Source: Vermamoeba vermiformis (lineage: Eukaryota). From it: a DNA stretch of 59,949 nt. Shown here one piece after another: positions 54,538 through 59,949 of the stretch. Position numbers and translations under genes: made by a program. The notes beneath the pieces were generated by a model that saw nothing but the letters and a program-made list of their open reading frames with translations, was not told where the DNA came from and searched no databases. Position 1 is the stretch's first letter. Every line of letters begins with the position of its first letter. The DNA lies in NCBI GenBank assembly GCA_045837725.1, contig JBEWZL010000179.1, forward strand, positions 682,001 to 741,949. The letters are read 5' to 3'.

Positions 54538-56035
54538 AGTCGCAGAACGGTAACGCACGTGTCCGCTTCCGGATTTGGAATAATATTTGTCTGATTTTCA
54601 TGAACGAGAATTTTATATAAGATACACGTAAGTACATTATCGCAGAGAGAATCAAATGATGACTCTAGAGTTCGTCTGAGTATTGTTGAGTGCTTTCGTC
54701 TTCTTGGGGTTCAGCGATCCGGCGAGCACTTCGGAGATTGTAATCTAGTGTTACGTTGATAAAGAACTGACATAATAAATGATTACTTACGATTTGTGTT
54801 GTTGTTATTTGGACCAGAACCAAGTTAGCAATGCGTCGGTCTTTTGGTGTTCGTTACTTACTTCCTTGAGCGTTGCTGGCATTTGTGTTTGACACTGCCA
54901 TTCAATAATGTTAGAAGGATAACTTAACTGATCGGCTAAGTTATCCCACCAAATTTCTCGCAGCAAATTAATTTGATTTAATTAATGTTTGAATATTTAT
55001 TAATACTATAATTATCACGAGCCTAATGTCTATAATATATATTAACTAAATTTGAAACTATGCCGTTCTTTGTTTCTTTGATTTAGAATTTTTACGCGAG
55101 ATCTTGCGACCTCGCTTCCTCTTCAGTGGTGCTGGAGGTACCACTTCTGTTGTCATATTTTGATCAGTCTCATCTTCTTCAACAGAAGTATTACTTGAGC
55201 TTGAATAGTCACTGTCATCATCAAACACTAGCTTTGATGTGGTGTAATATAACGGTGAGATCTACGCTCCTTTCGCCATTATCTCCGTCCCAGAAATTCT
55301 TTCCTATTTTAGGCAACTTTATGTGAATCGGATCTGCCATAAATAGCGTTCCGAAATCTTGTATTAGTGACACACTTGTAGTAAATAAACCAACACACGT
55401 CATTATAACAAAGTAAGACTTTTATTACATTTGGCGACACCGTGTTTAACGTACCGCTCGCAGACATGGCTGAAGAATTCGGCAAATCTGTCAACGAGTC
55501 AGCGCGTAAAAAGAATGGGCTAGACCCTAGAAGAGAGTCTACTTTTGACGTGACTACAAGTGAGTTCCTCCGTTATATTTGTTGTCGTGGAAATTTCTGA
55601 CCAAGATCCAGTCAGCGAATCACCGGATTCATATATACTGTAGGGCCTGGCCATATAGGGCTAGCCCTGAAAAATAAAAAATATTGTTGAAAAGCTATTT
55701 ATTTACAACTGTACAAAAAAACCCCAATTACCCAGGAAAAACCAAAACTGTACTAATCGTGTGCTAATTATAGTACTGTATTAGAACAGTCAAGGCACAG
55801 TACAAAGCAGACAGATAATTGTATCAGTGCATGTAACAATAAAAAATACTAAGTTTTACAAGCAAAAGTTTTCTGTAGTCGTACTAAAACAGTAATTGTG
55901 CAGTATTGAAAGTGTTCTAAATATTATGATTTATTATGTATGTATTTTGTGCTCAAACAAATTCAAAACTGTTCTAAATCGATCGCAAAGCGACAATTTT
56001 AAAGCGATTTAGAACACCTTTAGTACAGTTCAAAT

Positions 56036-57284
56036 TTAGCCAGCGTTAGCACTGTTTTGGGTTGGCTCTGGAACAGGTGGTGCTGCAGCAGCAGTAGGTA
56101 CCTCTTCAGGGTTCGTCTCCGCTTCTTCCCGTGATAAGAATACTCCTACAATTGTAATTAATTAGCAAAATGTTTTGAAACAATTGAACAACTTACCAGA
56201 GTCGTACACTCCAACAGCATTAATCAAACGCTTCTTCTCTTTCAAGGTCAACTTGTAGAAATCGCCTGTTTTTGTCAAAGCTGCTTTGCATATAACTGCT
56301 CCAATTGGAAGGGAGTCATGCTGCATTTTGTGTGTGAAAAGAAGCTGATCTTTGGGCTCAGCTTCAAACCAGATAACTTCTAACTCCCCAGCATCAGCAC
56401 GGCAGTCAACGACTTGAGCAAGCCAAAAGTCTTCTTCTGCAGTTTCATCAGGCAAGACACATATAACAGAGTCCAGAGGATAGCATGCAACTTAAAAACA
56501 AATTAGCACAGTTATAGTATACCGGCGGTACATTTTAAGTACAGTTGTAGAACATACCACGCTTTTTGTCTTCAGCAGTTACTTCGCGAACTTCTCCATT
56601 GCTTTCATTTTCCTTTTCTTGTTCTTCAACAATTTGAGATTGTTTTTGCTTTTTCTTTTCTACTCGAGCAAATTACTATTATGGCAATTATAATGAAAGG
56701 AACTTACTCTTTTTGTTAGTACTTCTAGGCCGAGCAGCTGCAGTGGGCTCCTCTTGAGTTACTCGGTTGAATTTCGCTTGATCTAACAATAAAACTTGAT
56801 TAAACAGTGCAGTATTGCAGGTAGTTTTAGAACAGTTTTAAGCCACCTATAGAACGGTTTTAAAACACCTATAGAACGGAACATACCAGGAACTTTAACT
56901 TTTTGAGCATGTCGCTGATTGTTGAGACACTTGCGAACCACGTCATATATTACCTCACCACTAATAGATTTTCCACAAAACCATTCTTGATGCATTTTAA
57001 CCGCCTCGGAAATTGTTTTTTCGACGAGGTTACCAGGTTGCTTATTAATTGGCTTGGTCAAATCAAAATCACTGCTAATTATTCGGTTGAGGTAATTCTA
57101 ATTTTTAAATATTTTTAGAAAATTGTGCAACGATAATAAAATTAATTTTCGTGAAATTATTTTTATAAGAATTTTAACTTACGCGCATCAAGTTAGGAAT
57201 TCTTTGCCGCTTAGATACAGGCTCCTCATTGCTAGAGTCTGACTCTTGTTCAATAGTGCGTTTACGTTTCGTGGTCTTCGACAT
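56036..57284 (-). CDS. Orphan nuclear protein (NLS, helical domain, C-terminal Tudor/BAH-like beta-barrel); 6 exons
   Basis: MSKTTKRKR..SKRQR; helical exon FDLTKPINKQ...VVRKCLNNQR; beta-rich exon DSVICVL..EEDFWLAQVVDCRADAGELEVIWFE. Canonical splice sites join in frame to the stop at 56036. Confidence 0.7.
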
Positions 57285-57441
57285 TGTTTCGAAAAAAAGT
57301 ACATCCATTTTATATATACTTGGGGTTGACGGACGTTTGGGTTATGGAAAAATTACTAAGTCGAATGGCCAACACATTATATATATAGTTAGGCTTAGCT
57401 AATTTAAGGCTTATAGGCCTAAAGCCTGGAAAATGTCATAT

Positions 57442-59759
57442 TTTTGAATAAACGTTATTTATTTTTGAATATACAATTATGCGTAAAATCAGTACTATCT
57501 TTGTTTTCCCAATTTTGAATCACAAACATTGTTTTCCCATCCATTTGCCTTGGCAGGTTTACAATGAAGACTGAGCCTAAAGTTAAGGAACTTAGTTTCA
57601 TCGGTAACTATTTTGAATATGCATACTTACAAAATGTCTATTCATTTGTATGCACGTCCAACTGGTAGAGTGCAGAATTCTCGATCAACCGTAGTCCAAG
57701 GACTACGATCAAATGCGGAATTCCTGACTGTGCGTAGTCCAAGGACTACGGTCAAATGCAGAATTCTTGACTAACCGTAGTCCGAGGACTACGCTCAAAC
57801 AAAGAATTCTTGAAGACCTGATGTGTACCAGCCTAATCATGAAGGGTCAGAATATTTGAATATGCAAAATAGTAAAATGTATATTCATTTATACCTGTGG
57901 GCCAGTCATCTACGGCGAGTGGTGGGAGGTTGCAGCGACCGAATCTAACTCCAACTGAATATCTCTAAAGAATAAAAGAATGTCAATATTTTGAATATGC
58001 AAAAAAAAATAGTGTCTATGCATTGTCATAGGGCACTACATTGACTTTAACAATTCCTCGAGTGTAGTCCAAGGACTACGGTCAAATGCAGAATTCCTGA
58101 CTGAGCGTAGTCCAAGGACTACGGTCATATGCAGAATTCTCAACTAACCGTAGTCCAAGGACTACGGTCAAATACAGAATTCTTGACATACCTGAAAACA
58201 GGCAAAGCAGCTTAATTGTCTCCATGACCTGTAGAAGGGTACATAAGTAATTTTGAATATACATTAATTAAAAGTGTATATTTAAAAGTTTGTAAAGATA
58301 ATGTGACCGTAGACCAAGGACTACGGTCAAATGCAGAATTCCCAACTGAGCGTAGTCCAAGGACTACGGTCAAATCAAGAATTCTCGACTAACCGTAGTC
58401 CAAGGACTACGCTCAAATGCAGAATTCCTGACAACAGGTCAGGGTTATACCATATACTTTGAGCGTAGTCCAAGGACTACGGTCAAATACAGAATTCTCA
58501 ACTAACCGTAGTCCAAGGACTACGCTCAAATACAGAATTCATGACATATTTGAACAGGGGGAAACTGCCCAAAGCTATAACAGGTGACCTGAGAAAGGGA
58601 ACGTAAGTTACTTTGCATATACATTAATCTAATTTGTCTATTCAAAAGTTTGAAAAGATGATGAAACAACCGTAGTCCAAGGACTACGGTCATATGCAGA
58701 ATTCTCGACTAACCGTAGTCCAAGGACTACGCTCAAATTCAGAATTCTCAACTGAGCGTAGTCCAAGGACTACGGTCAAAGATTCACACCTATAACCCTG
58801 AAGACTTACATAACCCTAACAGTGCAGAATAAGTCCAAACCATCCAATACAGCCATCAGATATTACTTGTGTGCTATAGTAAGGTAGATTAGCATCAGAG
58901 TGACAAAATAAAGAATCGAATTTGAATATTTAAAAAAAAATAATAACTATTTATTTTTGTGGGTCCGCATTTGATTACTTACTGCTGCAATGAAAGGAAG
59001 CCATGCAGATACAGGTGTTCTTATATATTCTATAGTGGTGTTGTTGGCAAGTTGAATGTAACAGAAAATGAACAAAAAAATCTTTTTTTGGTCAAGCACG
59101 TGATCGATGCTCGTTAAAATCTGACCAATGCACGCACTGCCAACCTCCTAATACACTTCTCAAGGGGCACATCAGTAGTGTGCTACTATTCAAATATGTA
59201 AGAGGTCAAGGAGAGGGCCCATTGGTGAGGATCCGATGGTCAGCCGATGTTGGATCGAGATCAGGATTTGCCAATTTCAGTCTGGTGGCTTCCAGTAAAG
59301 TAAGTAATCCAAGAATATTAATATAAATATTAACTACACTATGTGGTTAAACTGGTGGCATTATCTGCTACTATATAATAAAATAAATATTTAATAAAAT
59401 CAAATCTAGCCGTTACCAAAAACTTTATAACTTTTTGTTAGCAGTTCGAGCCAGTAAGTATCAAATTCATAGTGACAATAATATGAGTATTATGGTAAAA
59501 TTAATGTCATACTTGTAGGATAAATGGTAAGTGAGATTTTGCCGATCCAGAGGCTCGTGCACGATCCAGGATCAATCAGTGTGGAGCTTCAGTGACCACT
59601 GGTAAGTTTGAAAACACACTCAAATAATTAACTACAGTGCTCTAATACTAGTTGTCAGGTCAACAGAAGGCAGCAAGAGCTGGTTAAGCAGATCCAGACA
59701 AGTCGAAGCTGTATTTTTTGAATATACAAATAAATATTTTGAATATTCATTTTTGTACA
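57442..59759. repeat. Dispersed inverted-repeat motif TTTTGAATAT(A/G)CA-N11-TGT(A/C)TATTCA(A/T), about 8 copies
   Basis: Copies start at about 57442, 57611, 57855, 57989, 58251, 58611, 58921 (degenerate) and 59717 (spacer 12). Confidence 0.85.
57671..58780. repeat. Clustered 43-bp palindromic tandem repeat, 14 hairpin cores in 5 clusters
   Basis: Consensus TGCAGAATTC-YYRAC-T(AAC/GAG)-CGTAGTCCAAGGACTACG-(G/C)TCAAA. Clusters at about 57671-57812 (3 cores), 58060-58187 (3), 58305-58432 (3), 58460-58545 (2) and 58668-58780 (3). Confidence 0.97.
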
Positions 59760-59949
59760 AACAAATTTAGTGTCTGTATGAGTGATAGTTGGTGGATATA
59801 TCTTTCTACATTGGTCGCAGGTGGTTTTTGTTGAAGTTTGTGGGATTGACATGTCCCCATGTTGAAAATGTTTGATGTCCTGGATCGCAGAATGCTGAGG
59901 TTCTCTCTGCCTTTGATAACCCTGCAAAGGACCATTGCTCTTAGTGTTC

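Follow-up and report, generated by a model that had tools for sequence, protein, structure and literature searches.

Chromosome ends of Paramecium aurelia are capped by Helitrons that are inserted in telomere repeats and carry RepHel ORFs of 9-10 kb (bioRxiv 10.1101/2025.11.06.686955). A short spaced site at chromosome ends is SPE2 of Plasmodium falciparum, which has a 6-4-6 geometry and is bound by the host AP2 protein PfSIP2 (PMC2829057), and a short site within transposons is the VANC motif of Arabidopsis VANDAL elements, a single oriented 9-mer for which binding has been shown and which directs demethylation (PMC5735166). DNA transposons carrying TET genes, including TET+ Helitrons and ESTA, possess two defined ends and, according to the accessible text of the survey, were described from fungi only (PMC12730594).

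The window, i.e. the whole stretch of DNA that was analyzed, is the terminal stretch (59,949 bases) of contig C179 in an assembly of Vermamoeba vermiformis (43.3 Mb in 309 contigs) with short GT-AG introns and TTAGGG telomeres as host features. Three related elements are nested near its end, beginning at 55628 (family D), 57308 (family F) and 57377 (family A). The features are as follows, with the strand where one was assigned.

55628..57307: family D sister element, interrupted by family F; no box pairs
about 56036-57284, minus strand: intron-containing gene of family D, with no assigned family
57308..57376: first 69 bp of family F sister element, interrupted by family A
57377..59949: proximal 2.57 kb of the family A element, the rest lost at the contig end
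57376..57427: sharp terminus of family A; the target A (57376) is followed by TTATATATATAG, by G-rich letters resembling a telomere and by short stem-loops
57445..57475: box pair 1, direct
57614..57644: box pair 2; a hairpin cluster follows after 76 bp
57690..58774: 43-bp minisatellite with GC-rich hairpin, five clusters, 14 units
57857..57887: box pair 3, within a putative 62-nt minus-strand GT..AG bracket (57833-57894)
57992..58022: box pair 4; a hairpin cluster follows after 71 bp
58254..58284: box pair 5, the sole pair close to a perfect 13-bp inverted repeat (12 of 13); a hairpin cluster follows after 54 bp
58614..58644: box pair 6, paralogous to pair 5 and part of a 79-bp block that is duplicated
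58923..58932: lone box with a decayed partner, within a 109-nt minus-strand intron-like stretch (58874-58982)
59000..59700, plus strand: module rich in GATC, in which GTAAGT donors lie near 59300, 59454 and 59602
59719..59749: box pair 7, direct, with GT..AG brackets on both strands (minus 59709-59758, plus 59711-59770)

The motif unit consists of two near-palindromic 10-bp boxes, TG(A/T)ATAT(A/T)CA, whose starts lie at a fixed period of 21 bp. Boxes are arranged as inverted or direct pairs or as triples, the last at the 21-bp period in a sister family. Spacers are 11 bp long, 90% A/T and otherwise mutually unrelated, and the spectrum of spacer lengths has a single peak, at 11. An earlier note, made from the sequence alone, had counted about eight copies with this constant length and a variable spacer, and seven full pairs and one half were found. 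The 13-bp inverted arms that it described did not hold up: complementarity in window pairs 1-7 is only 7, 8, 10, 7, 12, 10 and 9 of 13, respectively, the pairs at 57445 and 59719 are direct, and over 21 pairs the range is 6-12 of 13.

Seven full pairs in 57377-59949 compare with a mean of 0.01 and a maximum of 1 in 300 dinucleotide shuffles. The genome-wide search proposed in the earlier note, when run with its exact pattern, gave 26 distinct sites, or 31 hits when strands are counted separately (control 0), and, with a relaxed pattern, 55 sites (control 0), far above the shuffled and control levels. In three diverged element regions, pairs at period 21 numbered 7, 10 and 4, no other period had more than 2, and in 264 kb of host loci, promoters included, there was one pair. 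Of the 55 relaxed-pattern sites, 50 were listed, and 49 of these 50 lie in elements of one superfamily (family A or its sister); the remaining listed site, in C212, is a host match near a PIF1 gene. The settings are almost exclusively non-coding: pairs are found close to the terminus, ahead of hairpin clusters, within introns and beside the TET gene. Box pairs are absent from the family D element of the window, from the C77 copy and from most of the 51-kb array of C260, so the site is not required throughout the superfamily. Viral contigs contained 52 scattered matches to the pattern and no TET relative.

Between families, spacers and flanks are unrelated while the boxes are retained, and a third family has similar boxes at a period of 19-20. 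Among eight recent family A copies, boxes were slightly less variable than other A/T positions (7/139 vs 95/1389 variable columns). These data bear on whether the pairs are neutral relics, left by local duplication of an A/T-rich module in a repetitive element. Pairs 5 and 6 do lie in a 79-bp duplication (80% identical) and the constraint among recent copies is weak, but boxes and exact period are kept across families, even in a gained intron, where spacer and flanks share nothing. Because the period is kept while the spacer has diverged, duplication alone is insufficient, and neutral relics are considered improbable. The best explanation, and a probable one, is that the unit is a bipartite cis-acting DNA site and not a mobile unit.

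Since 21 bp corresponds to two helical turns, both boxes would lie on one face of the helix, and it is fairly likely, judging from this geometry, that a dimeric or two-domain protein contacts both at once. The dimeric-protein half of the proposal in the earlier note thus survives as the best reading of the sequence, and its lox-like half does not (see below). The putative binding protein could be encoded by the element or by the host. A bipartite site is expected to be strictly spaced and to keep to the non-coding parts of one element family, as was found here, and by analogy the box pair would work like a family-specific bipartite binding site of the SPE2 or VANC kind. As with SPE2, it is bipartite, strictly spaced and clustered at chromosome ends, whereas its geometry is 10-11-10 with palindromic boxes and it lies inside mobile-looking elements (PMC2829057). 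As with VANC motifs, it is short and family-specific, occurs in introns and in the intergenic and terminal non-coding sequence of an element (here methylated-looking), and adjoins dynamic tandem repeats; unlike them, it is a spaced pair, its binding is putative and the candidate effector is a TET/JBP dioxygenase (PMC5735166).

A lox/FRT-type site has two inverted arms and a spacer of 6-8 bp, and recombination needs partner spacers that match. The earlier note had suggested sites of this kind, according to which a site-specific recombinase would use the box pairs to shuffle hairpin modules. The half-sites are symmetric, and tyrosine-recombinase genes, with motifs recognised by eye, are present in the genome in Ngaro-like retroelements. 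The candidate was nevertheless rejected, because the 11-bp spacers are all different, orientation is free, with direct and triple arrangements, and no breakpoints fall in spacers: deletions of 43-419 bp among family A copies have their breakpoints within or at 43-bp hairpin units and spare the boxes, and one 19-bp indel touches the first box. In addition, comparison of the recombinase elements with eight element-bearing ends gave no DNA match of at least 80 bp. Recombinase sites are thus regarded as highly improbable. At L065-L075 lie several Ngaro/DIRS-like retroelements, with ORFs for gag, RT-RNaseH and a tyrosine-recombinase-like protein; the PF00589 search missed them and gave 0 hits, although recombinase ORFs exist in the genome.

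The same note had offered a second possibility, that each pair is a tiny TIR element (introner) making introns in either orientation. The GT..AG brackets around several window pairs on which this was based are present in the sequence, but are not clearly enriched over A/T-rich patches: loose brackets enclose 17/21 pairs vs 65-76% of such patches, and strict GTRAGY brackets 3/21 vs 8-12%. Splice signals sit outside the boxes, at variable distances and at background frequency. The minus-strand bracket at pair 7, given previously as 59709-59759 and 51 nt, exists but spans 59709-59758 and 50 nt. The donor GTAAGT at 58603 is present in the window but reads CTAAGT in 2/8 aligned copies, while at 58243, described as a CpG-decayed donor, ATAAGT was confirmed in 8/8 copies and GT was found in 0/8. 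At a nearly equivalent place to the lone box at 58923, two sister families have an A/T-rich stretch with a GT donor and box-like letters. Two RNA runs with the same species label yielded 3 and 13 matched reads of about 13 million each, nearby host genes being almost uncovered.

One point in favour of an intron-making unit came from the TET genes of one sister family, in which introns at one shared codon (phase 0; 58 nt in C124 and C257, 54 nt in C215; placed by the reading frame) each contain a box pair, while the homologues of C137, C73 and C289 are intronless at that codon. A short AGGTA repeat flanks the intron in C124 and C257; it is absent in C215, and the distances between splice sites and boxes are unequal between C124/C257 and C215. 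The presence/absence and target-site-duplication check suggested by the earlier note was run on the eight aligned family A copies, and neither a single pair gained or lost separately nor a target duplication accompanying presence or absence of pairs was seen. One gained intron contains the motif, as in introners, but independent insertions, true TIRs and dispersal into host genes are lacking here (PMC12130899). The introner or MITE reading was therefore rejected, in view of the lack of independent insertions at unrelated loci and of terminal inverted repeats and of the near-total confinement of the listed sites to carrier elements, and is given the least credence. To judge from its sequence, the TET intron is better explained by a box site placed where coding sequence tolerates it than by an element that makes introns, although a single gain through such a unit may have occurred. 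The overlap of pairs with introns is attributed to the fact that coding sequence does not tolerate the site and that introns are A/T-rich.

The number of 43-bp hairpin units differs among copies. In the window (57690-58774) and the sister families, the hairpin loops read AA 113 times, its complement TT 22 times, GA 22 times and TC once, as if the loop center could flip; in several further families, a separate array of GC-rich hairpins, each about 20 bp long, lies close to the terminus. Rfam searches of the hairpin arrays gave sub-threshold miRNA-like hits only. The GATC-rich module of the window is probably a spliced non-coding unit, to judge from its donors; one frame of the region, near the window end, gave no Pfam match, and similar modules occur at other element loci. 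Long GATC-rich units with many GT-AG introns, exons of 75-100 nt and no long ORF (L025:4200-10000, L039, L101 and L041) would be transcribable toward the telomere, and Rfam matched none of them in the two C177 loci scanned.

This arrangement raises the possibility that a pair is a TATA-like bidirectional promoter or terminator signal for hairpin RNAs and spliced GATC-rich transcripts, and not a site for a transposition or chromatin factor. Consistent with it, 4/7 window pairs precede a hairpin cluster by 54-76 bp, and in one sister family pairs stand at both ends of the TET gene and also border GATC modules. Against it, orientation is free, pairs also occur within a mid-gene intron, and the pattern is nearly absent from host loci that contain promoters (1 in 264 kb). 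A transcription signal is thus considered quite unlikely, and the bipartite protein-binding site is retained as the preferred reading.

The carriers of the box pairs are large mobile-looking elements stacked toward chromosome ends. The family A terminus has 18 copies genome-wide, of which 18/18 are no more than 18.2 kb away from a contig end and 18/18 point to one; long copies (n = 7) are 94-98% identical. Loose ends in DNA runs also support this terminus. Seven contigs end, to within about 20 bases, at one position in family A, nearly the base at which the window ends, and this implies that the rest of the element was collapsed in the assembly; its continuation past the break was absent from the assembly and from the metagenome contigs searched. 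At the loci examined, mostly contig ends, 73 termini of about 12 related head types were counted, with the consensus TT.ATAT.. followed by telomere-like G-rich letters. The preceding base is A in 71/73, and the flanks comprise 70 distinct sequences that are not telomeric repeats. An uninterrupted site joining A and T was the commonest among junctions with a homologue (18/28); for the family A copy of the window, the empty site, taken from other copies of the interrupted family F, is CA↓TG (arrow, insertion point). Stem-loops were found within 60 bp of the terminus in 8/11 heads folded. Element ends read ATAA, TGAA or AAAA (..TATAA, ..ATGAA or ..TAAAA), and the canonical TC and CTRR are absent from these termini. 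Among the eight aligned family A copies, CpG transitions affected 41/116 sites vs 45/840 other C/G, an excess as expected of methylated DNA.

Some contigs carry outward-pointing elements at both ends. Matches to family F were outward-pointing in 8/9 cases, the direction of the ninth being not scorable, and all 9/9 were intact; none followed a distal family A end, which is at most suggestive of a one-ended element, as such a junction could be collapsed in the assembly. Element arrays reach TTAGGG arrays in C177 and C260, the latter array exceeding 51 kb; a telomere is demonstrated for these two arrays only, because most contig ends are assembly breaks. Exceptions to the polarity are two termini of C77, which are internal and point inward. 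A few element units follow TTAGGG repeats, and at the right end of C124 a truncated copy is followed by TTAGGG repeats and then by a new unit. Further sequences were observed in or beside the arrays: in the window, another repeat (55243-55627) that starts with TGTAAT, is interrupted by the family D terminus and has its start marked by loose ends in DNA runs; in C99, a DDE_Tnp_4 (Harbinger/ISL2EU-type) transposon with inverted ends, a few bases after family A box pair 2 (L026:8200-10000); in C264, a divergent histone H3-like gene inside a subtelomeric-type array (L046:3554-3841); and in C289, an ORF with a DGQHR motif and no Pfam hit inside a family D element (L093:2405-3859). The DGQHR motif is presumed to be ParB-like.

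With regard to how the carrier moves, a Helitron-like rolling-circle mechanism is quite possible, though short of probable. Such a telomere-associated Helitron would place its stem-loop 3′ end into the chromosome and insert between A and T, and the target, the terminal stem-loops, the 43-bp satellite and the Paramecium-like polarity are cited in support. As in the Paramecium Helitrons, polarity relative to the chromosome end is absolute, with the stem-loop end inward (the C77 termini excepted), a satellite lies near the inward end (about 44 nt there, 43 bp here), nested ORF-less copies are many and cargo ORFs take either orientation; here, by contrast, the target is A-T, the telomere-like letters form the head of the element, the searches recovered no RepHel, and both TET genes and box pairs occur (bioRxiv 10.1101/2025.11.06.686955). 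Canonical HLE1 Helitrons share the A/T insertion, the hairpin near one end and the gene cargo, but the end here is not CTRR, and the other end and a transposase were not found (PMC11417382). By its sequence the carrier combines the HLE1 target rule with the polarity of the Paramecium Helitrons, while classification as a Helitron would take a distal end and an enzyme.

Three other routes were considered. Recombination or break-induced copying of ends, assisted by telomerase, is somewhat unlikely. Retrotransposition of the Terminon type is doubtful: the Terminons of bdelloid rotifers also form giant polarised head-to-tail telomeric chains with telomere-like letters at the inward end and are truncated by telomeric repeats, as at the right end of C124, but here no Penelope-type RT or hammerhead was found and most junctions are A-T, not telomere repeats (PMC6431247). 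One-ended DDE transposition, by analogy with bacterial telomeric transposons (bioRxiv 10.1101/2024.11.13.623437), would be equally doubtful.

Profile searches for RepHel, Penelope RT and recombinase revealed no mobilising enzyme for the carrier. The genome search with PF14214 (Helitron Rep) gave 0 hits, its control being also silent and the assembly collapsing these repeats, and the three PIF1 hits were in host-like loci. RVT_1 gave 55 hits, those inspected belonging to LTR, LINE, Ngaro-like or telomerase-like sequences; no RT motif was found in oriented element ends, and no hammerhead ribozyme in an Rfam scan of seven loci (E ≤ 1). In the C260 array, an ORF of 668 aa (L110:3930-5933, minus strand) has seven homologues without a name and conserved K.Y..S..FR and Y..R.E motifs. 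It had no hit in Pfam, PHROG, Atlas or a word search, and its model (pLDDT 44) had no fold match at Z ≥ 5; from its motifs, a rolling-circle initiator had been suspected.

TET is the most recurrent coding gene in the element arrays. The TET/JBP-like genes of the sister families have an HxD..H..R pattern and mostly fall below the Pfam cut-off; the assembled part of the family A element in the window has no TET gene. RAG1/Transib-like transposase genes stand beside a TET/JBP-like gene at L094:5954-8993 (C77), L089 (C140) and L108:6034-9050 (C30), the TET assignment being Pfam-supported at two of these places and made by eye at C30. At the three places only one RAG1-like gene lies behind a terminus of the kind described here, and neither clear TIRs nor ends were found. 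A 5.3-kb element with a TET gene and a DUF7869 protein was seen at two internal loci, 98% identical (L096-L097 in C56 and L098-L099 in C121); the DUF7869 protein is probably a transposase, of a Sola-like kind.

The fungal TET transposons resemble this genome in that TET/JBP cargo occurs on several unrelated elements per genome, RAG1-like transposases included, and the RAG1/Transib-like and TET neighbours recall ESTA; the accessible text on the fungal elements mentions no spaced cis-motif, in contrast to the box pairs found here (PMC12730594). A protein bound to the box pairs would most likely bring in factors for transposition or for anti-silencing, for instance the TET/JBP dioxygenase of the sister families. 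Recruitment of an anti-silencing activity through the pairs, drawn by analogy, is attractive but unproven. The fullest version, that the chromosome ends are built by giant (>50 kb) polarised elements that join between A and T, extend to the telomere, use an enzyme outside the recognised families and aim their own TET/JBP at the family-specific box pairs, is at present unlikely.

For amoeba-like protists, no description of such elements or of the box-pair motif, and none of TET-carrying transposons, was found in the literature searched, which left most subscription journals outside. The box motif marks a genome-wide set of nested, polarised, TET-carrying chromosome-end elements, which parallels the Helitrons capping Paramecium chromosomes (bioRxiv 10.1101/2025.11.06.686955). 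The accessible text of the fungal survey gives no answer as to how a TET enzyme encoded by a transposon locates the element that carries it (PMC12730594), and a site that is strictly spaced, confined to elements, variable between families and next to a TET gene offers a direct experimental handle on TET targeting. If the giant-element reading is true, an element that builds subtelomeres would carry an anti-silencing system directed at itself, in an organism that is not a fungus.
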